A stretch of 64,000 bases of DNA, from assembly GCA_001724265.1 (NCBI GenBank), contig MEDY01000140.1, positions 1 through 64,000 of the forward strand. The letters are read 5' to 3'. The position numbers were made by a program, and so were the translations under genes. Positions within the stretch are counted from its first letter, which is position 1. Each line of letters begins with the position of its first letter. Source of the DNA: Rhizaria sp. SCN 62-66. Lineage: Eukaryota. The notes below the pieces were generated by a model. It worked only from the letters and a program-made list of their open reading frames with translations. It ran no database searches and was not told where the DNA came from. Below are positions 880-58,674 of this stretch, one piece after another.

Positions 880-921
<42 letters not shown>

Positions 922-2824: not shown

Positions 2825-5731
2825 ATGAGCACTGCGAGGCTAGATCTCAAACAGCTCCACGACAAGGAGCGCGAATACCAACGCCTCTACTCCGCAGCCC
2901 GGATGGAAATGAAACGAGCTGAAGCCGCAGCTTCTGCCGCAGGCGCCATTCTTCCGGCTATGGATGGGCGCGTTATTGCAGCAACTGAGCATGCGAAGCA
3001 AGTTCACGCTGCTCTCGTGCAAGCCACGCAGGCCCTCGCTGCTGCCGAACGGGCACGTATGCCCGCCGCCGCTGCTGCAGCTCCTGCTCCCACTCCCCCC
3101 GTTGCGCCGACTCATGTGGCAAACGCGTCTCTCAAAGCGAAGCGTGCTCTTATGCAGCATACAGAACAAGCGTCCCTCGCACTCCGCCAGCAGGCGTCTG
3201 CCGCTCACAAGGCCCTAATCAATGCAAGGGCGCGTCCTCTGTCGCCCGATCCCGGCCAGGCCAAGCAGCAGCTCGACCAGATTGAGAAGCTTGTCCTGAC
3301 TGTCAGCGACCTTAGCAGCAAGGTGAATGCCGCCGTGGATGTTGCTAAGAAGGCGCTCAAGGAGTACAACTCGGCTGCTGCCTCCGCTGCTGCTCCCGCT
3401 GTTGCGCCCGCTGCGCCCTCTGCGCCCTCCCGCAACACTGCTGCGGCGGCTAAGTCCACAAACCCCGCACAGCCAGGTCAGCTCGCCAAGCTTCGTGCCG
3501 CGGCGACTGCAGCGCGGGCCAACGCTGATGAGATCGTTGCACGAGCGACTGCTGCGCGGATGGAGCTCAATGCGACCAAGGCGACTGCAGTGCCCAAAGA
3601 CGCTCGCCTGGCGCAGCAGCACCGCGATCTCATTAAGAACCTCGAGATCTTGGCAAAACATCATAGCGACAACGCATCTCGTGCGGGTGGCGAGGCGAAG
3701 CTTGCACAGGACAAGTATAACGCTGCTGTCGCGAAGGAGAGGCCGCTGCAGAACGCAAAGCCGAAGGCTTCGTCCAAGGGTCCTGAGGACGATGCCTCCA
3801 GCCACGCTACCGCCGCCGCGGCACGCAACGAGCTGCTCTTGCGTTATCAGGAGTTGCTGCGCGAGGCACGGACTCTTCAAGTCGCCGCGTCCGAGGCTAC
3901 CAAGACCGCGAACGCGGCTCAGCGCGCTCTCGCGTCCAATTCTAACGCTGGTGGCGCGCAGCAGCAGCGTGATCACGTCAACGCACTGAAGGCTGCCGGT
4001 AGGAGCGCTTGCTCAAGGGCCTCGATGGCCACAAACCTCGCCGACATTGCACTGCGCAACTACGAGGCTTTTGGCCGTCCCCTCGCAGTGCAGCAGGCTG
4101 CAGCGGCCAGACCGGCTCCAAACACCCGCCCGGCTGCTGCGGCCCGCCGTGCCGAGCAGCGCGTCCGTCGCCACGAAGAGGACCAGAACTACTCTGACGA
4201 TGAGGACAGCGACCGCAGTGACGACGATGACAGTGATGATGGCGGCGGTGGCGGCGGCGGTGATGATGGCGGCGGTGGCGGCGGCGGTGATGATGACGAT
4301 GATGACTACCCTGACGACGCACCGAACGCTCCGCGCATGAACGTTGCGTGGGAGTTTTACTCCACCACGTTACCGCACTACGACTGCGCCTGTCAGCCCT
4401 GTGTCAACAACAACTGTCGGTGTCGCGCTCGCCGCTGTATCGACGGCGTCAGGTGCCCCTGCGCAGACGTGCCCGAGTGGTACAACGATCTCGTGGAGAG
4501 CGATCCAAATATTCTGCTCCGCGTGCGTAGGTTGTTGAGGCGCGCCCACATTAAGCTTGACGAACGCAACTTCAACAAGCTTAAGAAGAAGCAGGAGGAG
4601 AGTGGTGAGCCTCTGCTGCCCGAGACTGCCCGCGCCAAGAAGCCGTACTGGGACGAAACAACGGAGATCACTCCTGCATTCCGCACTCAGCCGACGGAGC
4701 CCAGTGTGATTTTTGCTGCCTTTAAGCATGTGCCGCTTCACAAGGTGCGTGTTGTCGTGCTCGGCCAAGACCCCATGACTCGCGAAGGCGGTGCCAACGG
4801 CTACCCTTTCTGCTCAGCCACGGACGACATTAACGATGCGCACAACACGGTTGTCAACGTACTGCACGAGATGCACAACTGCACCAACAATGGTGTAACC
4901 GAGGTTTTAAGTTAGCCCACGCACATGAAGAACTTTACCGACCGCATCGTCAACTGCACTGAGGACGCGCCGTTATCCAAGCACGGTCAGTTCCTTGCTT
5001 CTCAAGGCGTGTTGATGCTTCATTCTGGGCTTACAGTCGCGAACGACAACCCGCGCTCGCACTTGCACGCGTGGCGACACTTTACACAAGCTATTCTTCG
5101 ACTCATCGTGCACACAAACCCGGACGTCCTTATCGTGCCTATCGGTGTGGTTGCGCGTGACATGGTGGCCACATCGCTCCTTGGTGTTAACTACAAAAAA
5201 CTGTGGAACGCCCGCTCACGCCGCCGCGTGCACGAGCTTGTCACGGGAACCTATATCGAGCGTGACGAGGACTGGATTCTCCACGACAACGTCGGTGCGG
5301 GCATTACTGCTGCTGGTCGCCGGATGTTTCGCCCATCCCAGATCTTTTACGCTGGCCACCCGTCGAAGCGGAATAGTGATTTGGAAAAAAGGGGCGCGCT
5401 GCACCGTTTCATCGGCTCCGATGTGTACCGCAAGGTGAATCGCTATCTTGCATAGCACGGCCGCGACCCCGTGCACTGGCTGCCCGCCGACTGGCTGGGG
5501 CCCCAGCCCGACTACCTCGATGACGAGCCGCTTGACATCGCCGACGAGGCCGAGATTCCCGGCTACATTAACGCGCCCCGTGGCCAGGATCATGTGATGC
5601 GCCGTCTGCCTGTGCCGGTGTCAATGGCCGACCTGGTGCCGCCTGTCCTGCCCGAGCCTCCGGGCCAGGAGGGCCCTGAGGGCCCTGCTGGCCCTGGCCC
5701 TGCTGCTGGCCCTGAGGGTCCTCATGCGTAA
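2825..5731 (+). CDS. Second UNG-like protein (~968 aa): N-terminal Ala-rich helical repeats, Asp/Gly linker, Cys-rich cluster, UNG-like domain; two in-frame TAG codons (4913, 5453)
   Basis: ORF-track pieces 2819..4915, 4925..5455 and 5471..5731 are one frame separated only by TAG; motifs VRVVVLGQDPM, ANGYPFCS, ASQGVLMLH-LTV, HPSKRN, NRYLA*HGRDPVHW span all three; ends TAA. Confidence 0.8.
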
Positions 5732-35300: not shown

Positions 35301-38300
35301 GCGAGCCGACACCGTCGAGCAGCGAGAGCAGCGTGGCCACGATCGACGAGTGCACCTGGTCCTGGCGCGAGGACCGCACGGGCGCCAGCGCGTCGACTTC
35401 GTCCAGGAACACCACGGCGGGCGCCATTTGCGCCGCGAGCGCGAACAGATCGCGCAGCCGCCGCTCGGTCTCGCCGTAGAAGCGCGAGAGCACGTCAGAG
35501 CCCTTGCGCGCGAAGAAGCTCACGCGCGCACCGCGCAGCCAGCGCTGCGGCGTCGTCGCCCAGCGCAGGCGCGGCGGCTGCGGCGCGTCGGGTGGCTGCC
35601 CGTCCGCGGCGCCCGGGGCCGCCGGCTGGCCGCGCTTGCGGCGCGGGGTGACGCCCAGCAGCGAGAGCGTGCCAGCCCTGACCGCGGCCTTTTCTTCCTC
35701 GGTCAGACCTTCGAAGTCACTGTTCTCTTCGTCGTCATCGTCGTCCTCCTCATCGTCTTCCTCGTCGTCGTTATTCTTGTCCTCTTCGTCGTCGTCGCTG
35801 CCCTTCTTGCCTTTGCCCTTCGTACCCTTGGTGTCTTTGTCCTTGCCCTTGCCATGCTTAAGCTTCTTGCCGTTAAGGTCAAGCCCCAGTTTCTTCTGTG
35901 CATGCTTGAACGCGCGCAGCCAGCTGCCCACCTCAGCGCCAGCGTCTGTGGGCACTGTAGCGTACGCCTCCGCAGCAGTGATTGCCGCCGCCGCAGCGCT
36001 CTCGGCGACAGATGCAGCAGCCTTCGCCGCCGCTGTAGCAGCTTTGCGCGAGCCTGCGGTGGCGCCAGCCGCCAGTTCAGCCACTGCGGAGCCTGCCGTG
36101 GACCAGGAGGAGAGTGTGTTCGCAGGGGCACGAGTCTCACGGGCACTACGGCGTGAAGCGGCGGCACGAGCAGTGTTTCTATCTTCACGATCCTTTGCGT
36201 CTGCGTTCGTGGACACTGTTGCCACAGGGGCGCTACTGGCGACAATCGGCTTCTGAGCAGCAGACTTAGCGGCACGCTTGCGCTTGGCGACATGTCTAAC
36301 ACGGCGTTTCTTGCGGGCGCCGCCATCGTCGTCGTCATCATCGTCATCGACGTCGTTGTCGTCATCAACATACTCATCATCGTCGGCGTCCATATCGTTG
36401 CTATCATCGTCATCGTCGTCGCTCGCATTGTTGTACGCAGTGGCCTCAGCAGCGTCTTCATCGCCGTCACTGAGCGCGGCAGAGGCGCGCGGCACAGGCG
36501 CTCCACCCGCGGCCTCAACACCGGCCGCAGCCATCGCCTCCTCCATCGCCAGCTTGACTGCGCGCGCGACGCCCGGCGCCGCGGCGTCGCCGCCGTCGAA
36601 GCAGAGCGCGTCGCACGCCGCCGCGACGGTGCGCGCAAGCAGCGTCTTGCCTGTGCCGGGCGGGCCGTGCAGCAGCACGCCCGACGGCGGCTGTGCAGAG
36701 AAGCGCGCGTACAGCCCCGGGCACGCGAAGGGCAGCAGCAGGCCCTAGACGAGCGCGGTCACCGCGGTCGTGTTGCCGGCGACGGCGCGCCACGCCGGCG
36801 AGCACCGCAGTCGCGTGAACAACTCGACGGACCGCGCCGTGAACAGCGGACCGTGGTTCACTGTCGTTGCCGTCGCCGACGCAGAGGACGAGGCAGTTGA
36901 CTTGACAGGCGCTGCGACAGTCGACGCAGAGGCAGCAGCCGCAGCAGCGACTGAGGGTCGCCCTGCGAGAGCACGGATACTGTCCTCGTCACCCACCGCA
37001 GTGATGGCGGCGGCAGCGATGCCCACAGTCGTACCAACGGTAGTCGCACTGTCAGTCGCGTCGCCCATTGCGGAGGCCATCGGCGTCACGAAGTGCAGCG
37101 TGTCGAACACGGGGGCCGCGGAGGCGGCGTCCGCACGGCGTTGCTGCGGCGGCGCAGTGGCGATGGATACGAGCTCCTTGGCAGCAGCCGCGCACACCGT
37201 CGCCAGAGCGGCGCCGCCGGCCTCGTTGGCAGCGGCCGCGGCGGCCTCGAAGCGTTTCCACGCGACCGCGCCAGCGCGCGCCCTGTCAGCGGCCGTCACG
37301 GGCTCAGCCTCAGCGAAAACGTCACCAGCGGTGAGCGCCGTGGCCGGCGCGTCAACCGCGGCGGCCGCGGCGAGGTAAAGCTTGGTGGCGACGGCGTCGA
37401 GAGGTGAAAAGGTGTAGCTGGAGACCGACGCAGAGAGCGCGCGCACGCGGTCGCTGTCGCGCAGGCCCACAGTTGTCGTCGCCGCCACAGCCTCCGCGCC
37501 TGCCGGCGTCACCGTGACAGCCGTTGGGGCAGCCTCAGTGGCGACGGGTGCGTCCGCGCCTGTGGCAGCAGCAGCAGCAGCAGCGGCAGCAGCGGCAACG
37601 GCAGCGGCCGCGGCGGCCGACTCGGGATCCGCATTTTCGGCCGACTCAGCAGGCGCTGCAGACACCGCCGCGGGAGGCACGTATGAGTCAAAGAAGCGAG
37701 CCTGTTGCCGCTGCTTTGCGATGAAGCGGGCCAGCACGCGAGCGGCGCTGCGGGCGCGCGCGGCCACCGCGTTGACACGGGCCGCAGCAATCGAAGCAGC
37801 GTTCTTCTCACGAGCTGCGTTTGTCACTGCCTTTGCGCTCTCATCGGTGGCACCAGAGACAGTCGACTCTGCAGCGACAGCTGTCGTCGCGGCTGCGTTT
37901 GTGACAGGCTTCTCTTTAACACTAGTGACAAGCGCGTGCCAAGCAGCCTGCTCCGCAGTGCGCACGAACATAAGATAGCGCAGCGCGCGCGCGGCCTTGG
38001 CGCGCTCGAGGTTCCGCGCTGTCGCCATCGCCTCGGCCGCGCCGCCAGAGGAGCGCGCGGCCTCAAGTGCGGCAGTCGCAGCCTTGGCCGCGGCCTCGGC
38101 CTGCGCGAGCGCCTGCTGCGCCGCTGCGGCTGCGGCGGCTGCGGCCTGCTCGCGCGCCTTCTTGCTCATCTTGCGCATGCCCGCCGCGGTCGTCGTCGGC
38201 GCATTGGGGTCGTTCTGGGCCGACGAGGCGGCCGCGGCAACCGCGGCGGTGGCGGCGGTGGTCGCCGCTGTCACAGCAGCCGCCTGCGCGCGCGTCGCGG

Positions 38301-41300
38301 TCTCGGCGGCCGCGGCGGCCGTTGGCGGCACCCAGAGCACCTCCGCGCCCGCAGCAGCGCCCGCGGCCGCGGCGACAACAGCGGCCTCTTCGGCGCCCAG
38401 CGCAGCAGCCGCGGCCGTGGGGATCGTCGAGAGTGGGCGCCGGCGGTGGCGCGAGTTGACCAGCGCGACAAGGCGGCCCAACTTTCCTGGCAGTGGCAGC
38501 CGGGGAACAAGAGAGGTGTCGTGTGAGCTTGAAGCAGGAGCGGGCGACAGGAGCAAACCGACTGTTGGCGTGGGAAGAGCCACGGCAGCGCCAGCGTCGG
38601 TCACTGTCGCGGATGCTGTCGCAGCCTCGGGCTTACGCTTGTCGTCATAGTCTTCGTCGTCGCTGTCGCTGTCATTACCGAGTGCAGAGGCCAAGCGCGA
38701 ACGCTTGCTGGCCTTGGCTTGGCGCATCCGGCGACGAGTGCCAGCGCTCATATCTCCGTCCTCCTCCTCTTCCTCCTCCTTCTCATCATCACCGTCGTCA
38801 TCAGCCAGCAGACGCTTGCGTCCCTTGCTTTTCTTAGCAGCAACGGCGGCAAGCTCCTGCTCTTCCTGATCCACAATCGCACCAGTGGCAGTCCAGACAG
38901 CCGCCGTCGCCGTCTCCGCGGTCGCAGCATCCCCGCCTGCCGCGATGCGCGTCGCGCGCACACTCTCCTCGAGCACTTCGAGAGCGCCCTTGCCAGTGGC
39001 GGGTCGCGAGCTCATCGCAGTCCACCACGCAGACGCCGCGTTGGGATACAAACGCTGCGCCGCAAGCGCCGCGCGCAGTCGCCGCTCGCGCCGCTCGACG
39101 CGGCGCTGCGCGCGCCACTCCTCGAGGGTCAGCGGCACGCTGTGGTCGCGGCGCGTCAGTGGCAGAGCCGCGCGGCCACCGCGCTGCAGCGCTGCGGGCG
39201 CGAGGCGGGACGCGGCTTCAGAAAGCCACGCCGCGGCCGCGGCCGGGCGTGCTGCGGCCAGCGCGGCCGTGGCAGCCGCCGGCAGCGCGCTTGCGGCGCC
39301 CGTCAACGGCTCCGACGCGACTGTGTACGCGTTGCTAGGCAGTGCAGCACGCCCAGTCAGCGCGGACAGCGGAGGCAGCAGCGGCAGCGCAGCCACACCG
39401 CGCGCGCCGTCGTCGACAAAGCGATCCAGGTTGCGTAAAAAGCTGTTGCGTGCCACAACCCCGTCGCCGGCCGTCGGTGCTGTCGCGCCACGCGTGCTTG
39501 CGTGCGGCCTGCGCTGGCGCGCAGCGCGCAACTCCCCACGGGCAGTCCGGCGCTGCTCGCTTACGGCGCTGATGTCGATGGACGCGGCCACGACAGAAGC
39601 AGCATTGCCCTCAATGCTCCCGGACATCGAGCGCGAAGCAGGCTTGTTGTAGATGTCAACGGCGTACTCAGCGGCTTTCACTGCGCGCGCCTCAGAGCCT
39701 GACAGGGGGACCGCGCTCAGCGCCGCGATGATGGCGCTGACCGACTCAGCGACCGCAGTGTCTCCACGCTGGCGGCGCCGGGATAAGCGTGAAGCAGCTC
39801 GCGCGGCGCGGGCTTCAGCACGCGCCTTCGCGCGACTTGCTTTGGCGTCCGTCGCAGCTTCACTCGCTGTCTGAGCGTCGGCATCGCCCTTCTTGGCGGC
39901 TGAATCAGAGCCTGAATCTGAGCCTGCGTCCGACTCTGAGGAGCTCTGCGATGTAGGTGTAAACTCGCACTGCGCGAGCTCCAAAGCCTCGACCACAGCG
40001 GAGTTCACGACTGCGCCCACGGCTCCCGCTTCAACACGCTCTTCATCTGTGCTATCGCTTTCGTCGCTGCTCGCGCCGCCCAGCAACGCCTCAGGCAGCG
40101 CCATCGCGAAGGGCCCGCCAGTCCACACTGCGCGGTTCGCGATCTCACGCGCGCCCGCCAGCGTCTGCAGCGCCACCGCGCGCGCCTCGATCAGCGCCGT
40201 CGCCTCGGCCACGCCCGCGTCCGCGCAGCCGAGGTGCGCGTCCCACGCCTTGGCTCCCGTGGCAGCGCCGGCGACCGCGCCCGCAGCGGTCACTGCGGCA
40301 GTAGGAGGGCCCTTGAGGCGCTCTCCGTCGTGCGCTGCAACGTCGGCAGCGTCGGCAGCGATGCTCGCAACGGCGGCGAGCGCGGCGGCGCGGCGGCCCG
40401 CGCGGACGCCAGTAGGCCTGAGCGGGAGCGCGGGCAGCGGTGCGTGCGGGACGCGTGACTGCATCATCGACGCGCGGTGATGATCCGGACACAGAACGGA
40501 GTATGACTGGTACTGCATGCCGCAGCCCGAGGCCGGATCGGCAGCGCAGGGCAGGTGGTACGTCTTGCTGCACGAGGGGACATTGCACCCGATGTTCGCG
40601 CCGACGCACTGGCACTCTGCGCACACACTGCCCGCGGCGCGCTCGATCTCGGCGGCGACGTTCCTGAGCACGCCGCCCTGCTGATACACCTGCGGCGACC
40701 ACAACGCGCACTCGTAGTGCACGGCGACGGCCTCCAGTCCCAGTGAAGCGAGGAAGCGCCGCGTCGCCATCGTCGCGGGTGCGCGCGCGTTGGGCTGGCC
40801 GCGTGCATAGAGCGCGCCCTCGAGCTCGGTGCTCATGAGCTCGCGCCTGCGCCGGTCTGTGCGCGACAGCGCCGAGGCCAGCGCAGAGCCGGGGCGCGCG
40901 TGCGTCGGCGTGCGGGCGGTCGACACCAGCAGCGGGCCCAGCAGCGCCTTGTTCTGCCGCCGTGACGTGGGCAGCATCGGCATCGCGTCCGCGGCCGCGC
41001 GCGCAGCCGCCACGGACGCCGCGCGCGAAGGGACGCCGAGGTTCGGCGGCTCGTATCCGCCCGCGGCGCCGCGGAAGACCTCGTTGCTGTTGCTTTCGCG
41101 GCCGAGCCCCATGTTGGCCTCGACCTCGGCCTGCGCGGTCGCGGTCGAGACGAGCGTGACATGAGCGACGCCGCGCGGGTGCAGCAGCGTCGTGCGCACT
41201 GCGGCCGAGGGCTCCAGTCGCGGCTCTGCGGCCACCGCCAGGTCCGCGAGCGACGGCGGCCGGATCGGCACCGGCGCGGTCAGGGCGGACGAGGTCGCCA

Positions 41301-44300
41301 ATGCGGCCGTGTCGCGCACGTGCATCGCATTGGAGCCTGTGCCGACGGACGTTATGCCGGCCGTGGCCGCCGCGGCCGTGGTGGACGAGGTCAGAGCGGG
41401 CGCCGACGCGCACATTGAGAGATTGTGGTTGGCGTAGAAGGCTGCGAGACGCGGTGTCCACCCTGTGAAAGTCGTCAGTGACCGCATGAAGGCCTCCTCT
41501 TGCTTCGTCAGCGCGGGCGCGTACGCCTCCTTGAGCGCGTTCTTGCCGCTGCCGTCGGTGTCCAGGTCATCGCTGAGATCTGAGTCGTCGTCGGCGTGAT
41601 TATCCACCTCGCCAGCCGCGCGCTTTGCCTTGGCGGCGGCCTTTGCAGCAGCCTTGGCAGCCGCTTTGGCGCCCGCAGCGGCCGCCTCAGTCTCGCTTGG
41701 CGGCTTCGCGTGCGCCGCGTCGATCGGCGCGGCGATGCTGGGCGGCACAGTGGCCCATGCAGCCACGGCAGCAGCCTCGGCGACGGCGTCCTGCATGCTT
41801 GCGCGGCCCAGACCCACGACGGCGGAGCCCGCGGGCGCGGTGCCCACCCCGTTGCCGCTAGTCGCAGCTTCTGCCGCAATGGCCTCGGCCGCAGCGGCAG
41901 TGCCAGGAGCCGGGAAGTACATCGCGGAGCCAGACGCGGCGTTGGGCAGCGCAGCGGCGTAGCCGGTGGTCGGTGGCAGCAGTAGTCCCGGTTCAGAGGC
42001 AGGCGCTGCCATGAGAGACGGGTCAGTCAACGGCCGCGGCGGGCGCGCGCGTGGTGCGGCGGGGAAGGCAGTGGCTGCCAGCAAGTGGAGTGCACCCGCG
42101 GGCGGCGTGAACGGCATCGACAGCACGAAACGCGCCTCCGCAAGCGCGGCTGACAGCTCCACAGCACTCATCTTGGCCGCGGCAGCGGGCGTGATAGGCA
42201 TAGGACCGTCAGCGCCGGCAGCGGCTTGGTCGTCATCATCGCCATCGTCGTCAGCCATGCGACTCGCTGCGCTACGAGGTGCCACTGGTGCGGGAGCAGT
42301 CGCCTCGCCGTCGCCGCTCTGTGTTTGTGTCACCGGCGCGTTCAGCGCCGCCATCGCGGCCGTGAGCGTCGCTTCGTCCGCCGCGGCGCGAGCCCGGTTG
42401 GCGTGGTGCCTGGTCAGGGCCGCGATGACTTCATCGCGCACGCGCCGCTTGAAATCGAGCAGCGCGTCGCGGTAACCGACGACGGCGTCGGCGTGCGCGC
42501 GCCGCGCCTCGGCCTCGCGCATCGTCTCCTTCATCAGCGCGTACGTGTCGAGCGCGGCCTGCGCGTGTGCAGGCGCCGGCAGCCCGGGCCGCAGACACAG
42601 CGCGCAGCACGGCGCCGCGACGGCGTCGATGGCGGCCCACGACGCCACGGCTTCGATGTCGTCGTCATCGTGCTCCTCGCCACCGACGAGCCCGTGGTCG
42701 TCGTCGGCGCACGAGTCGTTGCCGCTGTCGCTGCCGTGGCGGGGCTCAGCGAACGCGTCGACGGCGGCGGCACGCAGCGCGGGGAGCCCACCACCGCCGT
42801 GGTAGCGGAGAGGCCGCACGCCGCGCGCGGCCGCCGCGGAGTCGCGGTACGCCGGAATCGTGTCGACCAGCAGGCGCGGCAGCATGCGGGGCTGCGGGGG
42901 CGCCGCGGGCAGCTTGGTCCTCGCGGGCGGGGCGGAGAGCCAGCGAGACGCTGCGATCGAAGTGTCGTCAAGCGAAGGTACGTGATTTATGGCGCACCGT
43001 GACTCCTTTTCAGACTCGCTGGTGATGTTGTTGTCACCATCATCGTGCGTCTGTGCCGGCGGGAGCAGTGTGAGCGAATTGACGATGTTTTCCGCTTCCG
43101 ACTCAGAGTCGCTCGAGATTGACAGCGCTTCAGAATTGGGGGTCTCGTCAGACGACTCTGAGTAGTCAAGCATCGCGCGTCTCCTGCTCTTGGCGTCGCT
43201 CACCTCTCCAGCTGCAGATGCAGCGGCGGCGGGCTCTGTATCTGTCGTTGTCGCTGTTGCTGCCACTGCAGTGGCCTCTGCGTCGGCCTGAGACTTGACC
43301 GCCTTCGCAGCCGCAGCCTCGGCAGTCGCGGCCTCGGTGGCAGCAGCAGCCTCAGCAGCAGCAACCTTCGCAGCCTCCGCAGCTGCTGCCTCCTCGGCGT
43401 CCTCGCGCTCGAACTGCGCGCGCATCGCGGCCATTTCCTCCTGCGCAGTGCGCGGGCGCGGCACGGCGCGGCGGTGCTGTCCCGTCCCGTCGCCGTGGTC
43501 ATCGTCCTCGTCGGCGTAGCTCACCGCGGTCACCGCCGCCAGCGACGTCAGCGCAGAGAGGATCGCGCGCGACCCGCCCGCGCCGGTGCTCGCGCCGCTG
43601 CGGATCGACGCCGCGCGGGAAAGACCCCCGGCCACGAATGATCCGACGGCGGAGACGGGGACAGCGACGGGGCGCGACGGCGAGTACGGCATCGAAGCCG
43701 AAGACGGCAGCGCAGCGCCGGCGCGCAAGGCGGTGGGCAAGCGCGCGGGCACGGAGAACGAGACCGACGATGCCTTGTTTGACGGAGACGTCGGGACTGC
43801 AGACGCTGCAGCAGTGGCAGGGCTTTGCAGCGACGCGGGCGTCGTGCGCGAAAGGGGTAAATCCCCAGCCGCGCCTGTAGGCGCTCCATCATCATCAGCA
43901 GCAGCAGCAGCCTCAGCAGCAGCGGAGGCGGCCACAGCGGCCGCAGTGGCGGTGATCGAGGCGGGCAGCGGCGTGAGGAAGAAGGGCGACGACACAAAGC
44001 CCGCGGGAATGTCGTTGACTGCAGTCGCCGCTGACGAGGCCGCGGGCGACATCGGCGGCTGGTTGGACCGGGGACGGCCGCGCGTGGGCGCGGGCGTCGC
44101 TGCAGCGGCGGCCAGCAATGTCCTCGCCCTTGTCCTGATCTGGCCGGTCGGCAGGGTCACGTCGAGCGCGGCCACGCTGTCGCTGCTTTCAAGACTCGCG
44201 GTGGCCGCCGCAGTGGCTGCAGCTGCGGCGGCGACGGCACTCGCTGGCACGCCCCTGTGCAATGCAACGGACGCGCGCCAGCCGTGCTCCGCGACGAGCG

Positions 44301-47226
44301 CTGCGTCCTCCTTCGCGTTCTCAGTGCGCTTCGCTTTGCCCTTGAGCTTGCTCTTGCTCTTGCTCTTGCCCGGATGAAGGGCCTCCTCGTCGTCCGCGGC
44401 AGCGTCGTCGCCGTCGCCCGTCTCGGCGGCATAGCGCGGCGGGGCGACCTTAAGCGCTCCGGCGCCGCCCCTGCGCTGCAGCTCGGCGATGCCCGACCGC
44501 GTGAGCCCGCCGGTGCAGAGCGGGCACCGCCACACGCCCTCTGGCGGGTCGCGCGCGAAGCCGATGCAGCGCAGATGGTACGAGCCGGGGCACAGCGGCA
44601 TGTCGCAACACAGCAGCTCGCCGCCGTCAGCGCACACGAGGCACAGCGGCGACGACGCCAGCGCCTGTGCGCGCAGAGAAAGAAGCGACTGCGTGCCCGC
44701 GCACGGCGGGCAGTCCCAGCGGCCCGGCGGCGGCGCTTCGAGCCGCACGCACGTCGGGTGGAAGCTGTCGGGGCAGTTGTCGCAGCAGAGCAGCTCGCCC
44801 GCGCCCATGCACACGCGGCAGTAGTCGGCGCTGCTCTTGACCACGCCCGCAGTGTCGCCTGCCTCGCACTGGCCCACGCACCGCGGGCAGCTGAACATCA
44901 AGCCGCCGGGGGTCGAGCACGCGTCGCGCGGCATCAGCACGTCGTGGCGGTCGTCGCCACTGCTGGCAGCGCTGCCTTCCGCAACTTTGTCGTCGACGAT
45001 GAACAGAGGCAGCGGGATCCCGCGCGATGACGCCGCCGTGGCCGCCGTAGCGACCGACGCGGCCAAGCACTTGGCGTGGATGCGAGTGGGGCAGCCGCCG
45101 CGACAGGCGACGAGGACCAGCTCGGCGCGCTTTGACTTGGACTTCGCCGCTTCCGAGTCAGCGCCGCTGCTCTTCTGATCGTCGCTGTGACGCTGACTGG
45201 GGATACGGTCATCGTCGTCCTTGCCACAATAGCAGCACAGGTCGCGCTTGGGCATCGCGCGCAGCAGCGAGCGCAGCGGGGTTGAGAACACGCTCGCCGC
45301 CGCAGCCGTATTTTGCATCGCGCCAGAGCCGCTGCCGCTGCCGCCGCTGGTGGCGCCACGGCGGGATATGTGGCCCCCGCGCGCCGCGACAGCCGCGGCC
45401 GCGGCGGCGCTTTGTCCGGCGTACAGCAGCGCTGCGGTCGCAAGCGGCGGCAGCGCGCCAGGCTCGTCCTCGTCGACCGCACTAGCGCCGGCGCCGGCCT
45501 GCGGCAAAGTGGCCTGCGCCAGCGCTGCCTGCACCGCGGCAGCCGCGGTCATCGGCGGCGCGGCGGGCTGCGGACGCGAGCGGCTCCCGCTGCTGCTCGG
45601 CTGCGCGCGCTGCTGCTGCAGCTGCTGCGCGAAGAGCTTTTGCGCGACGAGCGCCGTGTTGACCGCGGAGGCAGCGACTTCGCGGTGTGCGACGGCCGCG
45701 TAGCCCGTGCCGTAGGGCTCCAGAGCGACGGCAACGGGCTGCGGCAGCGGGGCTGCCATCGCGCTGCTGCCGGGCTTGCCGCCCAGCAAGAGCGTGACCC
45801 TGGCGGCGGCGGGCAGGCGCGCGGCCGCGACGCCGGCGAGCACCTCGGCGGGCAAAACGCGGCCCACGCAGCACGGACACACGAACGCGTCCGGGTCCCC
45901 GCCCGCGCGCGCGAGCAGCTCGCTCATGGCGGCTTGGCTTTCGAACAGCGCGGCGGCTTCGTCCAGAGTGCGCACACCGTACTCGGCCCCCACGTCGACG
46001 TTGCCAGCGGCCGAGGCCCGCGCCTTTGCGTCATCCGCGTCGGTATCAGCGCCAGCGCCAGCGCCAGCGGAAATGTCGGGCGGAGGCAGTTCCGCGGTGT
46101 AGCGGCGCACTGCGTCGCGCGTGACGAGGCCGGCGCGCGCGCACACAGCCAGCGCGCGGAGGTAGAAGCGGCGGCGGTGCGCGGCGGCGCGGCGCGCGGT
46201 GGCCACGCCGGCGCGCGCGAGACAGCGCGGGTGGTACTCGTGGCGGCACACTACGCACCACCACGCCCGCGACGACGACACGGACGGCGACGCGGCTGCG
46301 GTTGATGTGGACGCTGCGCCCGCGTTAGCTGGCGCCAGAGCAGGGCCAGCAGCAGTAGCAGCAGCAACAGCCCCGTCCGTCATATCAGTTGCCGAGACTG
46401 TGTCCGTGTTGGTACTCGCACGAGGCGCGACTATAGCGCACTCGCCGCCGCCGTTATCGCCGTCGCAGTCGTCGTCGTCGCTGATGCTGTCTGCGTCTGT
46501 GGCGACGCCGCAGAGCGCGCAGGCGGCCTCGTCGTGCGGACACCGCGCGGCGGCAGCCGCAGCGGCCACAGCCTCTGGCGCCAGCGCAGTCAGAGTTACG
46601 GTCGGCGCAGCGACGCGGAGGCTGTGTGCGGTCCCGCCGTGTGCAACGGAGGTGCGGCTGTGTGTATGGCTGTGCGCAGCGTTGGCTTGGTGACTGGGCG
46701 CAGCATGTGCGTGGTGACTGTGTGCTGCGGGGGTCGAGTTTGCGAGCTGGAGCCGCAGCGGGACAGCGGATGCGCTAGCCGAGGCGGCAGACGCTGCCGT
46801 GGCAGTCGCAGCCAAGGGAAATACTTGTGCTGGCGCCGATGGCGCCACCGTTGCTGCCGGCGCATGTGCTTGTGCCAGTGCAGGAGCTGAAGTTTGAGCT
46901 TGATCTTGTGTCGATGCGGGTGCAGTCGCAGCTTTGTCGGCAGTCTTGGTCCGGTTGCTGGTGCGACTGGGCCTGTCGTCGAGGCGGCTGGAAACAACTA
47001 CGACGTCGCTGCCATCGCTCTCGCTCTCGCCGCTGCTGCTGCTGCTCAGACTGCTGCTGCTACTGACCTCGCCGCCGCTACTGCTGCTGTCAAGCGTTCT
47101 GCGCTTGGCCGGAGTCGCGGCCGCGGCTGGCTTCGTTGGGGCCGTCTTAGAGCTGTTTGACTTGGTCGCAGCGGCCTTGCTGATTACGGCTGTCCTACCG
47201 CCATCATCACCATCGTTGTCGTCGCC

Positions 47227-47263
<37 letters not shown>

Positions 47264-47334
47264 GACTCGAGCTTGCGGAGCACCTTCTGCGCAGGGGCAG
47301 ACGCAACAGCAGCGCCTGTAGACGAGGATGATGA

Positions 47335-47374
<40 letters not shown>

Positions 47375-48201
47375 TAGGACGACGATGACGCAGTCAGCTG
47401 CAGCCGCAGCCCGGCGCCGGCTCCGGTGCCGCTGCCCAAAGGCGCGGGAGCGGGCCCAACCGAGCCGCGGGGCAGCGCCAGCGATACCACTCCAGACTTT
47501 GAGCTCGAGACGGAGCTCGCACTTGTTTTTGCAGTGCTGCCTCCAGTGGTCGAAGACGCAGCCACATTAAGCCGCAGATTCGCGCCCCCACTGTTGCTGT
47601 TGCTGCTCTTTACGCTGCTGCGCTGCGAGTTGCTGTTGCTATTGCCACCACGTCCGCGGCTGTCGTTGTGGTAGATGTACCCCGTCTCCGAGTCCGAGCT
47701 CGAGCTCTCAGCGGCCGCCGCGGACGAACGCAACGGGATCGGGATCGAAACAACGCCGCTGCTGCCGCGCGCGCCACTGCCACCGTGGCGCTGCTGCGAG
47801 TGCTGCGCGGGGGCGGCGCCCTTGTCGTGGCTGGTGCCACTGCTGCGGTTGCCACTGTGACGGTCACTGTGACTGTTCCTGTGGGCACTATGACTGTGAC
47901 TATGCCCGTGACCGTGACTATGACTGTGGCCGCCGTGGAGGCGCGATGCCCCCGCTGGGCCCGACACGGCCGCGGTAACCTGCGCAAGGCGGCTGGCAGC
48001 AGCGTCGCGCTGGTGGTAGCTGGCCGAGGCGTGGCGGCCGTCCGCCAGCGGGCGCGACACTGCCGCGGCGGCCGAGAGCAGCTGGCGAGTCGCGCGCACC
48101 CCCGGCGGCAGCAGCGCGGCCGCCGCGGCCTCAGACTCGGCCGCGGACGCCGTGGGCGCGGACGGGGTGCTGCCGCGCGTAGGGCGGTGGTGACCTGACA
48201 T
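32392..48201 (-). CDS. Giant (~5,269 aa) chromatin protein: several PHD fingers, AT-hook-like RGRP, extended PHD (HC5HC2H) and ATAD2/Yta7-type AAA+ ATPase; two in-frame TAG (47374, 36745)
   Basis: ORFs 47374..48201, 36745..47283 and 32392..36678 share one frame broken only by TAG; canonical PHDs at ~44510-44825; [10 protein letters not shown]...HLPCA...CPDH at ~40480-40725; [57 protein letters not shown]; ends TAA. Confidence 0.8.
47336..47373 (-). repeat. (TCG)n poly-Ser microsatellite immediately following the in-frame TAG
   Basis: (GAC)n on + strand. Confidence 0.9.
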
Positions 48202-49676: not shown

Positions 49677-50188
49677 ATGGCGAGCCAGGTGCAGTACAGC
49701 ACGGCGTAGGCCTGGCTGAAGGCACACATTGGCGCGGTGCCTAACACCTCCACAGGCTGGTTCCGCGCGGGCGTGGGCTTCTACAACAAGCGCGAGTACG
49801 CGTTCTCCATCCAGTGCTTCGAGAAGGCCATCGCGCTCGACCCCAAGAACTACAACGCCTACCAAGTCATGAGCCGCGCCTGCATTGCAGTTAATCGTAC
49901 GCTATCTTGCGCAGATCTGCTTCTCCTCTCCTGGTGTCACGAACAGTAGTCTGCTGCACGATATTCGCTCACTCACCCTTCTCTCTTCGTTATTTCCACT
50001 CACTTGTTTTGCTGTCTCTCCGCGCGACAGGCCGCGACCTGGCGATCATCGCGCTCAAAGAAAGTGTGAAGCTGAACAACCCCTCTGACTGGCATCTCTT
50101 GGTCGAGCTCACTGCCCAGGAGGCCGACCTCAAGGCCAAGGGCGACTCGGCCAACGCCGTGCATGTGCCGCAAGAGAACGACGCGTAA
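49677..50188 (+). CDS. Small TPR-repeat protein (~125 aa); exons 49677-49896, 50031-50188; in-frame TAG at 49707
   Basis: WF-AG--FY----Y--SI-CFEKAIALDPKNYNAY is a TPR; the only ATG upstream of the TPR is at 49677, ten codons before a TAG; ends TAA. Confidence 0.8.
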
Positions 50189-50732: not shown

Positions 50733-51532
50733 TCACGCCGGCCCTAGACCGCCGCCGAGGCCGCCGTTGTGCTGCGGAGCGAGCGCGGCGCTGTTCGCGG
50801 CGTCGGAGATGGAGATGCGGGATGCGCCAGGGGCCAACGCGCCGGCGACGGCGTCGGCCACCGCGCGCGCCAGCGCCGCCACGGCCGCCGCAGAGTCGCG
50901 CGAGTTGCTGTGACCATGTGACAAGAAACAAGAGACAACGCCAGAGAACAAGAGGCAAAAGACGAGAGAGGTTGAATAAGATGTGCGAGTGAGTTCGTGT
51001 GAAAAACTCGAGTTGCGGTCGATGATCGTTGACAAATCAGTCGTGATACCATGCAAACAACAATGAAATCAGATGCAGTCCATTTTGTCTGAAATGGCAT
51101 CAGAACTTCGTTCGATACAAGAACGTACCAGACGACGACGATCGCGGCGACGACGACGGCGGCCATGGCAGTCACCACGAGACACGCGCACGCGCACGTG
51201 CGCCGCTGCACCGGACTCCACCGCGCCAGCGCAAGCCCCACGGCCGCGCCGGCCTCCGCCGCGGCCTCGCCCGCAGACAGCGTCGCATAGCCCCCATCAT
51301 CAGCGCCAGCACGAGTGTGGTTAGAGCTTTTGACGCCTTTGTAGCGATAGTCGCTCACGCTGCTGCTGTTGCTGCTGCTGATGTAGCCCAGACTGCCGCT
51401 CTCACTGTCTCGCTCGCTGTGCCCGCGCTCACTGTGGTGGCCACCGTCGCTGTGGAGCTCGCCACGGTCACTCTGCCCACGGTCACTCTGCCCACGGTCA
51501 CTGTGGCGACTGAAGCTGCTGTGGAGAGACAA

Positions 51533-51564
<32 letters not shown>

Positions 51565-51665
51565 GGGTGCTGAAGCCGTCGCTGTCGTCCTGATATCGCC
51601 TGCTCCCACAGCCTTGGCCGACATAGTTCTTGCTGGCAGTCTTGGCCGCACTCGCCACCGCGTCT

Positions 51666-51700
<35 letters not shown>

Positions 51701-52739
51701 GGAGCTGATGCTGATGTGGTCGTCGCCGAGCGACTGTGAGCGGCCAAGGCGGCTTGAGTTCACGCCGCCGATCGCCACATCACCGTTCCGCCCCCCGGCC
51801 CCGGCCCCGCTACCCTCCGCCGCAGACGGCAACGCACCGTCGCCGCAGCAGACGCAGCAAGCGCGGAGAGCGCGGAGAGCGCGGGCAAGAAGCAGGTACA
51901 GGGACAGCAGCACAGCGGTTACGGCAGCGCCCAGAGCGGCGAGGGCGGCCGCCGCGGCCGCGAGGCAGTGCGCAGTGCAGAAGAACACGGCGTCCAGACA
52001 CGCGTCGCAGCATGACATGGCGCAGGCGTCGCCGGAGGCCGAGTCTGAAGCCGAGGCGGAGAAGCGCGGGCCGTCGGGGCCAGGCATCGAGGACAGAAAC
52101 GAGTTCCACGACGAGCTATGTTAAGGCAGTATAAATACACGAATACAAAGCACTTTCAGAATATAAATATGATTTTATACATGGAATTACAGTTACATAT
52201 GTAAAACTCAAATACTATTACAGTGAGCCTTTGCTAAGATCGATTAATGTGCATAGATATCAAATTGTTTGCTTGTCGTACCCTTTGGCGGCGGCCTTGG
52301 CGAGGGCGCCGACGCCGACGACTGTGGCGCCTGGGGGCGGCGCCAGCAGCTTGCGCCGGGCCTGGTCAAGCAGGCGGCGCTGCTGCTGCTGGCGTTGGTG
52401 CTGCTGCAGCGACTGCGCCTGCTGCTGCAACACGGTCGGGAGCAGCAACGAGCCGTCAGGCATCGAAGCGACACCTGCTGCTGCTGCTGCTGCTGTTGCT
52501 GCTGTTTGGAGTGCTGAGGACTTGTGTCGCGCTGCGTAGCTGCCGCCGTATGCCTCCACGTGCGTAGGTGCGGCGCGCAGCGGGTCGGTGGAACCTTGCA
52601 CGCGCTGTGCAAAGGCGGGGAGTGCGGACGACGACGGGGGCTGCGGGGCGGTAGAGGAGGCAAAGGGGGCCTCGGATGAGGGCGGGGCCGGTCCCAGGAG
52701 CGGCTGGACCGAGCGGCCAGACGGGCTGAACTGCGACAT
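50733..52739 (-). CDS. Uncharacterised low-complexity membrane protein (~539 aa); exons 52739-52282, 52115-51129, 50907-50733
   Basis: Two GTACG...AG introns join three ORF pieces in frame; two hydrophobic segments flanked by Cys clusters; poly-Q/N/G runs; ends TGA. Confidence 0.7.
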
Positions 52740-53020
52740 GACGTAGTTCACACGCCCAATACCCTAGAAAATATAGCGCATAATGTTGGGAAGGAATGTA
52801 TCATGAGATAATCGTGCAGATAGGGGTCAGACAGGAGCAGGCTTGCAGGAGCGAAATGGGAGGCAACGGATGTGATTGATTTGAAAAAGTGTCTGGTCGT
52901 TGCATCTGTCCGTCAACAGATACACCCGTTTTACCCCGAAGACACCACATAGGTTTGTCTATAATCCCTATTTTATACTCGCTAGAAGCGCCTTTATCAC
53001 ACAAATCCACTTCAAACAAA

Positions 53021-54631
53021 ATGTTGTCGAGCCTCGCGGCCTACGGCAGCAGCGACAGCGAGGCCAGCGACGCCGAGACCGCGCCCACCAAGCACTCACC
53101 TAAGGCCTCTGATGTCGCGGTCGTCTCCGCCGCGTCTAGGCTGACATCTCTGTTTGCGGACGACGCTGACGACGCCGACAGTGCTCCCGCCGGTCCGGTC
53201 GCCGCAACCGCAACGGCTCCCGTCCATCCAGCCACAAACGCAACCACAAACTTGGGCGCTAAGCCCGCAACTGCGGCCACAGTCGCCAAGCCTGCCAGCA
53301 GCACCGGCGGCATTAACTGGGGCGTTCTTTCCGCGCCCTCAGCTGCCGCCACAGCCGCGACCACTGGCGCTGGCATGACCTCTACTAGCTCTGGCTCCTC
53401 TAGCTCTAGCTCTGGCTCTGGCTCTGGCTCTGCTGCTGCGGAGGCTGACGGCGGCGACGGCGGCGCGGACATTGCCCCCAGCATCAAGCGCCCCCGCGTC
53501 ATCACCTCGGCGGCCGCAGCCCCGCTCACAGTCACTCTCGGCGGCCCCTCCGCCTCAGCCACATCCGCATCAGCAGCCGCAACCGCTGCCACCGGCTCAG
53601 CAACAGCAGCGACAGGCAGCAGTGGCAGCGCGATGTTGCTGCAACGCTCGCGCGCACTGATGGCGGGCTTTTCTTCCACAGCCGGTGCCGCCGCCGCCGG
53701 CCCCGCGCCCGCGCCTGCTGCTGCTGCGGCGGCGGTGACAGCAGCATCGACCGACTCGAGCTCGAGCTCTGCTGCAGAGACACCTGCGCCTGCTCCTGGA
53801 GCTGCGGACGCTGCTCCTGCGCTGAACAGCACCGCCGCGGCGCTGGCGATGATGCGCCGGTACGCGGCCGCGAGCGCCACGGCCGACGCTGAGGCCGCGG
53901 CCGCGGTCGCCGCGGCGGCGCAGGCGGACGCCGCCGCAGCCAAGGCGGCTACAGAGGCGGCAGCGATCGCAATCTGGGCCGCCACTGAGACCAAGGCCAA
54001 GGCCGACGCAGAAGCCAAGGCCAAGGCTGCGGCAGCTGTTGTCACCGCTGAGACTGACGCTGGTGCCGCTGTTGATGTTGCAGCCAGCACCGGCAGCGAC
54101 ACGCAATCGAGCCCTGCCGCGCCCGCCTCAACTGCGAACTCCACCTCGACTGCAAACTCCGCCTTAGCTGTTGCGACTGCCAAGGCGCCGGCCCCCGGCA
54201 GTCTGGCCGCGTTGGCGGCTCGCGACCGCACTTTGCGCCGCGAGCTCCTCGCCGCCGGCCTCCTCAACACACAGAGCGACGGCACCGGCGACACCTGTGA
54301 CGACTACGAAGATGCTGACTCAGCCAAGCCATCCCGCCGCGGCGCGACCGTGGTGAGCGTGTCGCAGGCCTCGCTGACCGCGCTCTCGCGCGAGGAGCGG
54401 CTGCGCGCCGAGGTCGAGGCGCAGGTCCGCGCGCAGCACGCTGCACAGACCCGCGCCGTGACCGGCATGACGCGCTGGGACGCCGCGCTCGGTCGCGAGG
54501 TCACTGTCGAGTCAGCTACAGGCGGCGGGGCCGGCGATAGGGCCGCCAAGAGCCGGATCGGCGTGCTCGCGGAGCAGGCAATCAAGACGGAGCTCGCAAT
54601 CGCGCTCAAGAAGGCCGTGGGGCGTCGATGA
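53021..54631 (+). CDS. Ala/Ser-rich protein, possibly PRCC-like
   Basis: N-terminal LSSLAAYGSSDSE and C-terminal KSRIGVLAEQAIKTEL resemble the PRCC termini; the rest is low complexity; ends TGA. Confidence 0.55.
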   Translation: MLSSLAAYGSSDSEASDAETAPTKHSPKASDVAVVSAASRLTSLFADDADDADSAPAGPVAATATAPVHPATNATTNLGAKPATAATVAKPASSTGGINWGVLSAPSAAATAATTGAGMTSTSSGSSSSSSGSGSGSAAAEADGGDGGADIAPSIKRPRVITSAAAAPLTVTLGGPSASATSASAAATAATGSATAATGSSGSAMLLQRSRALMAGFSSTAGAAAAGPAPAPAAAAAAVTAASTDSSSSSAAETPAPAPGAADAAPALNSTAAALAMMRRYAAASATADAEAAAAVAAAAQADAAAAKAATEAAAIAIWAATETKAKADAEAKAKAAAAVVTAETDAGAAVDVAASTGSDTQSSPAAPASTANSTSTANSALAVATAKAPAPGSLAALAARDRTLRRELLAAGLLNTQSDGTGDTCDDYEDADSAKPSRRGATVVSVSQASLTALSREERLRAEVEAQVRAQHAAQTRAVTGMTRWDAALGREVTVESATGGGAGDRAAKSRIGVLAEQAIKTELAIALKKAVGRR

Positions 54632-56517: not shown

Positions 56518-58674
56518 TCATGTCGAAGGACGCTTGACCTGGAAAGCCACAGAACCATCACCCTCGCTGCCGTCCAGCTGATCCTGCTCCTGTAGCGGCT
56601 CATTTTGCTCGCGCTCGTCCTAATCATTCTCATCATCCGCATCCGCGCTCGCAGCCACGTCAGCCGCAGCCCCCGGCGCGGCCCTCTTGACACCGCCCTT
56701 AGAGCACGCCGCGGCCGCCGCGACAAGCACCTTCTGCAGCGCCTCTTTGCGCGCAACGGCGGCGTCAACTGCGCCGCGGAGCTCGTCGCACTCGCGCAGC
56801 TCCTGGCGCGCGCGCTCGTGCATGCCCGTGAGCAGCGCAAACAGCTGCTGCGCGCCGCCCATGACGCGCAGGAAGCCCTCGAGCTTGGAGCCTGACTCGA
56901 CGACCGACTGCACAAAGGCCTTGTTGGGCAGCTGTCGGGCGTCAGAGGCGAAGTTGAGCGTCGTCACCGTCTCCTGAGCGTTGCTGGGCGAGGGCGAGAT
57001 GTTGGCGATGAGGCAGAGCTTGCTGTTGCCGCCGATGAGCCCGCGCAGCAGCAGTGTAAGCTTCGAGTTGCGGTACGACTTGTACTGTTGGTTCTGCACC
57101 AGTGAGCGCAGCATCGAACCCAGCTCAGACAGAGACTTGTTGATGTTCGACGCCTCATTGAGCTGCGAGCCGCCCGACGCGCCCGTGGTCTTGGCGCACT
57201 CGGAGCCGGCCAGATCCACAAGCGTGAGCTTCGACGTCGTCGCCACAGTGCCCAGGTCCGTCACGCGGCGCGCAGTGATAGTCACGGTAAAAAACGAGTG
57301 CGAGCGCGATGACTTGGCGTTCATGAGCGTCGCGCCGCTGTGCCGGTTCGCGTTGCCCGCGCGCAAGTGCGCTAGTGCGTCCTCGGCGGACGTGATCACG
57401 TGCTCCACCAAGTTCACCGGCTCGCCGTTCATGATGCGCACTTCGGTGTTCTCGACAGGGCCGGGGCCCGTGGACACGGCGGGCGGCGCCAGCAGGTCGA
57501 ACACCTTGATGTTGTAGATCTCCAGGAATGAGCAACGGCACTCGACGATTGCGCCCTCGCTCGCCTGCTGCGCGCGGATCTTACTGAACAGGTCGGCCAG
57601 TACACGCGGGATCAGACCGCGCTGGTCGCTGCTGTCATAAAAGCCAGACTGTGCGTACGCCTGCGCCTGCGCCTGTGCGCTGGGGGCGTCGAGCGTCGGG
57701 CCCATCATCGTGAACGTCTTGCCCGAGCCCGTCTGCCCGTAGACAAGAATGGTCCCGTTGAAGCCGGCGAGACAGGAGTCGACGACTGGACGGCCCGCGT
57801 GCTCGTACACAGCGCCCTGCGTCGTGGCCTGGTCGAGCACAGAGTCGAAGTTGAACTGCCGCGGCGGCGCGCCGGGCTGCTGCACGACGACGGAGCCGTG
57901 GCCGTCAAACTTGAGAAAGCCGTCGCCCTCGGCCGCCGAGCCCAGCGCGCGCGTCTCGTTCATGTTGGCCGGGCGCACGCGCACGAGCACGGAGACGCTG
58001 TTGTTGGCCAGCGCGGCCGCGGCGGCGGCGGCAGAGGCGGACACCGCGGCGCTGCTGTTGTTCGCGGAGGCGGCGCTGGATAACAGCGCGGGTGCGGAGG
58101 CAACGAGGGACTGCGCGCCCAGGGCCGCGGCGGAGACTGGGAGAGGCGCGGACGCAGAGGTCGGCGTCGGAGTGCCAGCCGCAGCGGCCGCCGCGGCGGC
58201 CGGGTCGCTGGCAGACATGGTGCCGGAGCTGGTGCTGTTCAGCGAAAGCGAAACGTGCGGGTTCGAGCCGCTACGCGCGCGCATGCCGGGAATCAGGCCG
58301 GACGTCTTGCCGCCCTGTGATGCGGAAGCGGAGGCAGAGGCAGCGGATGCACCAACAGCGGCGGCGGACGGGGCGGAGGACATGGCAGTGCCGGCGACGG
58401 AGCTGGGAGCAGTGCTAGGACGCATGTTCTCGGGCGCCATAACGGCGGCAAGCACAGCGGACTCACGCTCGGTCAAAGAACGCGCAGGGGCGCGAGGAGA
58501 CTTGAGCAAGTTGTTGAACGGGTTGCCGCCAGAGGGAGCGCCCGAAGCAGCGGCCGCGGCCGCGAGGGCGAGCGCCGCACCTGATGGACGCGCGCTATAA
58601 GCGTTATTGGAAGACGTGGAGGATCCCACGGCGCCAAGAATCGAGTCCTTGCGCTGCTTCGCCGAGTGTTGCAT
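56518..58674 (-). CDS. Kinesin motor protein with long low-complexity N-terminus and short tail; in-frame TAG at 56620, probable true stop TGA at 56518
   Basis: V-VRVRP, F-FD-V, GFNGTILVYGQTGSGKT, N-KSSRSH, LVDLAGSE, NINKSLS-LG, YRNSKLT-LL, GGNSK, IANISP, ET-TTL-FA. Confidence 0.9.

Follow-up and report, generated by a model that had tools for sequence, protein, structure and literature searches.

Analysis of the window, a 64,000-nucleotide (nt) stretch of contig MEDY01000140.1 (assembly GCA_001724265.1, Rhizaria sp. SCN 62-66; positions 1 to 64,000 of the forward strand), identified six TAG codons within the reading frames of four genes of a microbial eukaryote. The best reading of these codons is that UAG probably serves as a sense codon throughout the nuclear genes of this organism, with UAA and UGA as its sole terminators. 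TAG occurs within conserved domains and within long open reading frames (ORFs), the coding signal continues past it, and no gene in the window ends in TAG. Domain continuity, coding signal and the 0/17 TAG gene ends agree with the first-pass annotation of this DNA, which had described TAG as sense-like and TAA and TGA as the only stops in eukaryotic nuclear DNA. The six sites that it had reported are all present and in frame, as follows.

4913..4915, plus strand, TAG, codon 697 of uracil-DNA-glycosylase-like (UDG-like) gene B
5453..5455, plus strand, TAG, codon 877 of UDG-like gene B
36745..36747, minus strand, TAG, codon 3819 of the 5269-codon PHD/AAA gene
47374..47376, minus strand, TAG, codon 276 of the 5269-codon PHD/AAA gene
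49707..49709, plus strand, TAG, codon 11 of a small TPR gene (weak site)
56620..56622, minus strand, TAG, codon 685 of a kinesin gene (weak site)

The two genes that carry the strong sites are the following.

2825..5731, plus strand, UDG-like gene B, 968 codons, ends in TAA
32392..48201, minus strand, giant gene of 5269 codons encoding PHD fingers and a single AAA domain (PHD/AAA gene), ends in TAA

Among the 15,345 codons of 19 curated coding segments we counted six TAG, no TAA and no TGA, which bears out the earlier statement that the genes hold no internal TAA or TGA. Four of the six sites (4913, 5453, 36745, and 47374) are strong and cannot be terminators. Read-through of TAG joins the standard-code ORFs 2825..4915 and 4925..5455 into a single frame, 2825..5731 (968 amino acids), joins ORFs 47374..48201, 36745..46383, and 32392..36546 into 32392..48201 (5269 amino acids), and lengthens ORF 56620..58674 to 56518 (718 amino acids).

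TAG 36745 falls 16 residues into the AAA module of the giant gene and 25 residues ahead of its GPPGTGKT motif, and the alignments to the solved Afg2, Cdc48, and VAT structures are ungapped from 16 residues before the TAG to past Walker A. The Pfam AAA domain lies entirely downstream of this TAG. The next ATG (36546) follows 66 codons on, beyond Walker A, and a separate downstream gene would therefore have no P-loop. TAG 36745 and TAG 47374 are the sole stops within the 5269-codon frame, which contains no TGA and no TAA; on both strands of the window TGA is three times commoner than TAG (1703 versus 569). TAG 47374, one base change from TCG, interrupts a run of 23 Ser codons (4 upstream, 19 downstream), and the frame after it is open for 3542 further codons. 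In the giant protein, several zinc fingers of the PHD type accompany a single AAA domain, which is split: ∼340 residues of acidic low-complexity sequence lie between its Walker A part and the remainder. An exhaustive protein search with the N-terminal region of the AAA domain returned no orthologue; the matches were all generic AAA proteins (best E value, 4.9e-28).

In UDG-like gene B, TAG 4913 is located between the GQDP and HPS motifs, within a lineage-specific insertion, and TAG 5453 is located within the C-terminal segment N..L..G...W, which is conserved in family-1 UDGs. Matches to solved UDG structures are found ahead of TAG 4913 (at the GQDP motif), in the interval between it and TAG 5453, and over the latter (overall E value, 3e-12), and the alignment with the paralogue (2..1465) spans both TAGs (E value, 1e-29). 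Eleven bacterial UDGs also align at the C-terminal segment around TAG 5453; the seven codons before this TAG align with the paralogue and with these 11 proteins and are therefore translated. The two UDG-like paralogues are tandem and divergent (2-1465 and 2825-5731, plus strand; 30% identity over the domain), and gene B additionally contains an N-terminal part of 560 residues that is acidic and rich in Ala, a Cys-rich motif, and ∼60 residues inserted into the UDG core. A protein search with the UDG-like protein, which databases list as 578 or 587 amino acids, found nothing closer than bacterial UDGs at 25 to 32% identity, and a metagenome scan with the same protein found a single identical contig of 1656 nt only.

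The coding signal past the TAGs was assessed with a codon log-odds model that was trained on genes without TAG and scored on the 33 codons after each stop. The scores after TAGs 4913, 5453, 36745, 47374, 49707, and 56620 are +0.68, +0.98, +0.26, -0.21, +0.95, and +0.61 bit/codon, respectively, and the sole negative value (-0.21, TAG 47374) is that of the poly-Ser tract, while the score is negative (-1.21 to -0.03 bit/codon) after all 17 TAA or TGA terminators. The G+C content is 0.34 to 0.47 after the true stops versus 0.56 to 0.76 after the TAGs.

The annotation had counted 16 visible gene ends, 8 TAA and 8 TGA. Our count is 17 (9 TAA and 8 TGA), and the absence of TAG among them stands (0/17), in a small sample in which several ends come from models inferred from frames and homology only. 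The next in-frame stop past these 17 terminators is TGA in 8 cases, TAG in 5, and TAA in 3, with none within 33 codons in 1; at a TAG share of 5/16, simple arithmetic gives a probability of ∼0.002 for 0/17 TAG terminators. Several candidate stops were rejected. The apparent TAG end of ORF 50744..52087 (minus strand) disappears when an intron at 50908-51128 (GTACGT..CACAG) shifts the frame to an end at TGA 50733-50735, TAG 26189-26191 is the 3′ splice site of the RNB gene intron 26038-26191, and TGA 7888 and TGA 15642 are both intronic. A minus-strand ORF at 52801..54468 with two TAGs is the shadow of a plus-strand gene (-0.11 versus +0.31 bit/codon).

TAG is about as frequent as the rarest sense codons of the window (6 in 15,345 versus 7 for ATA and 8 for AGA), and it would make up ∼0.5 to 1.2% of the codons of its residue (6 versus 1312 Ser, 844 Glu, or 497 Gln codons). 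This rarity is consistent with strong bias in the genome or with a reassignment that is still young.

The presence of TAG beyond one assembly was checked on assembled contigs, and five of the six sites are unchanged in others. Contigs from a run of another study (X3) cover 36745, 49707, and 56620 with 0 differences, 49707 is also spanned by an X4 contig and 56620 by an X6 contig, both unchanged, and a JGI metagenome contig (L001) shows 100% identity over 3939-5594, both UDG TAGs (4913 and 5453) included. Site 47374, next to a (TCG)n repeat, is spanned by no listed contig of another run. The 684-amino-acid kinesin ORF that stops at TAG 56620 is recorded from six contigs of three sources. Contigs of X3, X4, and X7 lack 3 nt at 47047-47050, where the N-terminal part of the giant gene is of low complexity; this is either an in-frame length polymorphism or a mis-laid repeat.

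The window has few introns, and all seven that were recognized share a donor pattern.

7813, 15334, 26038, 48599, 48834, and 49897, plus strand, and 51128, minus strand, intron donors, all seven beginning GTAC[GA]Y

Two of these introns are confirmed by RNA and five are inferred; the six with both ends placed measure 134 to 267 nt. RNA contigs (X7 polyA and X6) join 48598 to 48757 and 48833 to 49101 over GT..AG introns, and the window DNA is therefore nuclear and transcribed. The introns confirmed by RNA contigs (48599-48756 and 48834-49100) both belong to a small SERF-like gene at 48581-49181 (plus strand; protein start MTRGNQRD), which is the best-covered transcript in the RNA runs. The donor of the seven introns is unusually uniform, and the hexamer GTACGY is unenriched in the window (58 matches versus 58.4 expected). 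An X7 polyA RNA contig at 50737-51336 retains the predicted intron 50908-51128 and is 12 nt short at 51244; unspliced RNA, DNA carry-over, or a strain variant could account for it.

The two weak sites are located in the following genes.

49677..50188, plus strand, TPR gene, exons 49677-49896 and 50031-50188, intron 49897-50030 (GTACGC..GACAG), ends in TAA
56518..58674, minus strand, kinesin gene, 718 codons with read-through, ends in TGA

TAG 49707 is in frame in the TPR gene, as had been claimed, with the start at ATG 49677 and not at 49678, which makes the TAG codon 11. The TPR motif (residues 27 to 58) lies between this TAG and the next ATG (codon 65), and an X6 contig begins at 50031, the start of the second exon. 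A 67-nt intron over TAG 49707 was rejected, as it would break the TPR frame. Directly 5′ of the TPR ATG, the stretch 49640-49676 is pyrimidine-rich, ends in CAG, and resembles a 3′ splice acceptor; on these sequence features it suggests an intron in the 5′ untranslated region of the gene. TAG 56620 lies in the acidic tail of the kinesin, 33 codons upstream of the TGA, and the codon score after it is +0.61 bit/codon versus -0.29 bit/codon after the kinesin TGA. The orthologue P0292 from a related species (62% identical over the motor) has 715 amino acids, and the window kinesin has 718 with read-through and 684 when truncated, the length that databases list. This match in length provides modest support for read-through of the kinesin TAG; the tails align poorly.

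Several points weigh against the interpretation of UAG as a sense codon. The whole analysis covers 64 kb and six sites, two of which (49707 and 56620) are weak, and at 49707 a short upstream ORF followed by non-ATG initiation downstream is a possible alternative. The UDG stretch over TAG 5453 is weak by itself (4.4 bits), and the Pfam UDG match of gene B falls under the curated cutoff (22.6 versus 24.3 bits). With the codon usage of the window, 69% of one-step nonsense changes lead to TAG, which gives a probability of ∼0.11 that six of six would be TAG; the observation that only TAG occurs is thus weak alone, and the strong evidence is that frames stay open, domains continue across the TAGs, and gene ends in TAG are missing. 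The decoding machinery is unseen, as no tRNA gene and no other Rfam RNA was found in the 64-kb window (ARAGORN, 0; Rfam, 0), and the eRF1 gene is not among the window genes. On the RNA side, no listed contig of the polyA run X7 spans any TAG, the depth of that run is zero in the bin containing 49707, and the X6 contig that spans TAG 56620 unchanged comes from a run rated "probably DNA" despite its spliced joints. An in-frame GT is found exactly 21 nt upstream of three of the six TAGs (4913, 5453, and 49707), compared to 39 of the 569 TAG trinucleotides (6.9%), an excess that we cannot fully explain. Finally, because TAG is very rare, inefficient read-through and full reassignment are indistinguishable here.

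The last of these points leads to the alternative that survives best, in which UAG is an ambiguous or leaky stop: a weak suppressor or near-cognate tRNA would read it with some efficiency, a few genes would tolerate it, and gene ends would avoid it, short of full reassignment. The extreme scarcity of in-frame TAG (6/15,345 codons, in 4 of ∼19 genes) would be expected of such a codon, and UAG-reassigned ciliates, as described in PMC11687900, have internal UAG in 78 to 91% of genes; the unseen decoding machinery is compatible with it as well. However, the sense codons ATA (7) and AGA (8) are about as rare, and TAG ends none of the 17 genes. The sites are deep in long genes, where partial truncation of an AAA or UDG domain would be costly, and no read-through motif or structure was found at the TAGs that would point to leaky or signal-dependent reading. 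The bases that follow the six TAGs are C, C, G, T, G, and G, with no shared downstream context, and no stimulatory RNA structure was found after them (fold z = -0.14, -0.55, +1.07, -1.91, -0.59, and -0.47, the lowest being a repeat). With no shared structure or context, the reading of TAG therefore looks global rather than signal driven, and we regard a leaky stop as unlikely.

Removal or change of the TAGs in the RNA, either through splicing of minute 21-nt introns that keep the frame (GT..TAG; sites 4913, 5453, and 49707) or through editing (for instance, UAG to UGG or CAG), would draw on the excess of in-frame GT at -21 (3/6 sites versus the 6.9% background), on the shorter gap to the paralogue that removal of 21 nt at 4913 would produce, and on the fact that no RNA reads were seen over these sites. 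The candidate donors (GTAACC, GTGAAT, and GTGCAG) nevertheless fall outside the GTAC[GA]Y pattern of 7/7 introns, and no in-frame GT occurs within 45 nt of 47374 or 56620. At 5453 the seven codons that would be excised align with the paralogue and the 11 bacterial UDGs, conserved N and L included, and are thus protein, and at 36745 the AAA alignment is ungapped; this homology argument covers 5453 and 36745 and does not reach 4913 and 49707. Editing to UGG is opposed by the aligned AAA column, in which Trp occurs in 0/214 domains, and neither splicing nor editing explains the missing TAG terminators. We consider a change at the RNA level improbable. A standard code, with the four genes as pseudogenes or fixed nonsense alleles, could appeal to the 69% bias of nonsense changes toward TAG and to the divergent, duplicated, lineage-specific nature of the UDG-like pair, but it is very improbable given the lack of any frameshift, TAA, or TGA in 5269 + 968 + 718 codons, the undiminished coding signal past the TAGs, the identical TAGs in assemblies from several studies and years, the 0/17 TAG terminators, and the need for 4 of ∼19 genes to be dead in a gene-dense region.

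If UAG is a sense codon in this genome, a tRNA carrying CUA as its anticodon would read UAG but not UAA and insert the residue, an argument that has been made in PMC5304391 and PMC11687900. Recognition of UAG by eRF1, the stop recognition motifs of which are listed in PMC5304391, would have been lost or weakened. Former TAG stops may have been replaced by TAA, which would place TAA at 9/17 gene ends despite a G+C content at third codon positions (GC3) of 0.67 to 0.87 in the window genes.

The identity of the inserted residue was estimated from the alignment columns at the TAG sites. The sole strongly conserved column is that of TAG 36745, for which the best 150 proteins of the exhaustive search, with no orthologue among them, gave 340 aligned AAA domains, 214 of which passed the gap filter. 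Glu occupies this column in 161 of the 214 domains, followed by Arg (13), Asp (12), Gln (10), Ala (4), Asn (3), Lys, Thr, Ser, and Leu (2 each), and Ile, Met, and Val (1 each). The column thus favors Glu, and it is the one that the annotation had pointed out as a Glu position by comparison with ATAD2-type proteins. The column at TAG 5453 is variable, with Gly in five, Ser in three, Ala in two, and Arg in one of the 11 bacterial UDGs, Arg in the paralogue, and Lys in the Deinococcus enzyme. Opposite TAG 4913 stands an Ala of the paralogue, after a 9-residue gap, and opposite TAG 56620 an Asp of P0292, while the position of TAG 47374 within a Ser run points to Ser. A crude BLOSUM-weighted sum over five sites (S, 2.7 bits; D, 2.1 bits; E, 2.0 bits; A, 1.1 bits; Q, 0.3 bits) has no clear winner.

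The earlier assignment of UAG as probably Gln is not supported by these data, as Gln accounts for 10/214 residues at the AAA column, the UDG column is variable, and the summed score of Gln is 0.3 bits. The alignment to a Gln position of Escherichia coli Ung on which that assignment had drawn is real, but in so variable a column the E. coli Gln carries no weight. Leu and Trp had been called unlikely, and both, together with Tyr, fall outside the ten best residues of the five-site score. A polar or small residue is favored, and Glu, Ser, and Gln are all compatible. When priors from known codes are included, Glu becomes the leading candidate, at somewhat below an even chance; Gln is a doubtful choice, Ser is rather unlikely, and any other residue is more unlikely still.

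A change of code confined to UAG is rare and is already known from about eight other protist lineages. The list of precedents in the annotation was incomplete: Scotinosphaera (Ser), Protocruzia tuzeti (Gln), and three phyllopharyngean lineages are to be added according to PMC11687900. According to Panek et al. (2017, PMC5304391), UAG encodes Gln in Iotanema spirale (Fornicata) and Leu in the rhizarian sp. exLh (Sainouroidea). As described there, these two resemble the present case in being non-ciliate protists with nuclear sense UAG, UAA and UGA stops, and in-frame UAG in conserved genes, and the account describes their tRNA(CUA) as predicted and not found. They differ in that transcriptomes offered many sites and the amino acid was resolved, whereas six sites in a GC-rich genome are compatible here with several residues; the Leu of exLh is outside the ten best residues in our score. 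Among phyllopharyngean ciliates, as reported by McGowan et al. (2024, PMC11687900), three uncultivated TARA metagenome-assembled genomes (MAGs) use UAG for Leu, and Hartmannula sinica and Trochilia petrani use it for Gln. Protocruzia tuzeti also reads UAG as Gln. The phyllopharyngean cases likewise show UAG-only reassignment, and according to that report they were partly found in MAGs. The UAA share of terminators rose after the UAG change in ciliates (PMC11687900), and TAA ends 9/17 genes here. In the figures given for ciliates, internal UAG makes up 6.5 to 32% of the codons of its residue (PMC11687900), far above the ∼0.5 to 1.2% in the window. Unlike these ciliates, the window also has long genes, GTACGY introns of 134 to 267 nt, and a G+C content of 57 to 72%.

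A UAG codon for Glu, the residue favored at the AAA column, has precedents in the oligohymenophorean ciliate PL0344 (UAG=Glu, UAA=Lys; McGowan et al. 2023, PMC10553269) and in peritrichs and Blastocrithidia (UAR=Glu; PMC11687900 and PMC12153298), although by these accounts UAA is reassigned there too. In the literature searched we found no code in which UAG is Glu while UAA and UGA stay stops, and if the residue is Glu, the code would be a new variant. The green alga Scotinosphaera reads UAG as Ser and retains UAA as a stop (cited in PMC11687900). A code of this type would leave a 24-residue Ser run uninterrupted at 47374, but Ser occurs in 2/214 domains at the AAA column, and the window shows no link to green algae. 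No UAG-only code in a wastewater eukaryote was found in the literature searched. High G+C, very low UAG use, and lineage set this case apart from the known codes. We tentatively propose, as a possibility, an independent reassignment in a lineage without a known code variant, perhaps of Discoba or Rhizaria affinity, with very low UAG use, UAG as Glu (or Ser), and UAA and UGA as stops.

Since UAA and UAG usually change together, each uncoupled case tests why the code is hard to change. If true, the present case would lie outside the AT-rich ciliates, in a genome of 57 to 72% G+C, and as its UAG use is on a par with that of the rarest sense codons, it could represent a stop codon takeover still in its early phase. 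In practical terms, gene callers truncate the proteins of this organism, and eukaryotic bins from sludge metagenomes need a check of the genetic code.

The source organism is an uncultured, GC-rich, intron-poor microbial eukaryote of bioreactor and wastewater metagenomes. Twelve rows of metagenome runs, drawn from 8 studies and labeled bioreactor, wastewater, activated sludge, and microbial fuel cell, contain the window sequence; four of these rows contain half or more of its words. Besides the two tandem UDG-like genes, the eukaryotic genes of the window include those for an aspartate aminotransferase, ALG11, RNA polymerase III Rpc25, a USP-type ubiquitin hydrolase, an RNB exonuclease, and a diacylglycerol/sphingosine-type kinase, the 5269-codon PHD/AAA gene, and the SERF-like, small TPR, DUF3228, and kinesin genes. 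The closest named kinesins are those of the heteroloboseans Pharyngomonas, Acrasis, and Percolomonas (43 to 44% identity), and the closest named aspartate aminotransferases (62 to 63%) are those of Lapot and Mataza (Rhizaria) and of Eutreptiella and Ploeotia (Euglenida). A kinesin tree built on 25 chosen named rows places the window kinesin and P0292 by themselves on a long branch. Uncultured relatives are present in databases (aminotransferase at 77% and 70% identity and kinesin at 62%), and the spread of the code is therefore testable. A scan of prokaryote genome contigs with the window kinesin returned a 32% match only, a kinesin-like match (E value, 2e-13) at positions 382-690 of a 20-kb contig (L002) of a MAG labeled uncultured Elusimicrobia bacterium, which probably reflects eukaryotic contamination of the bin.

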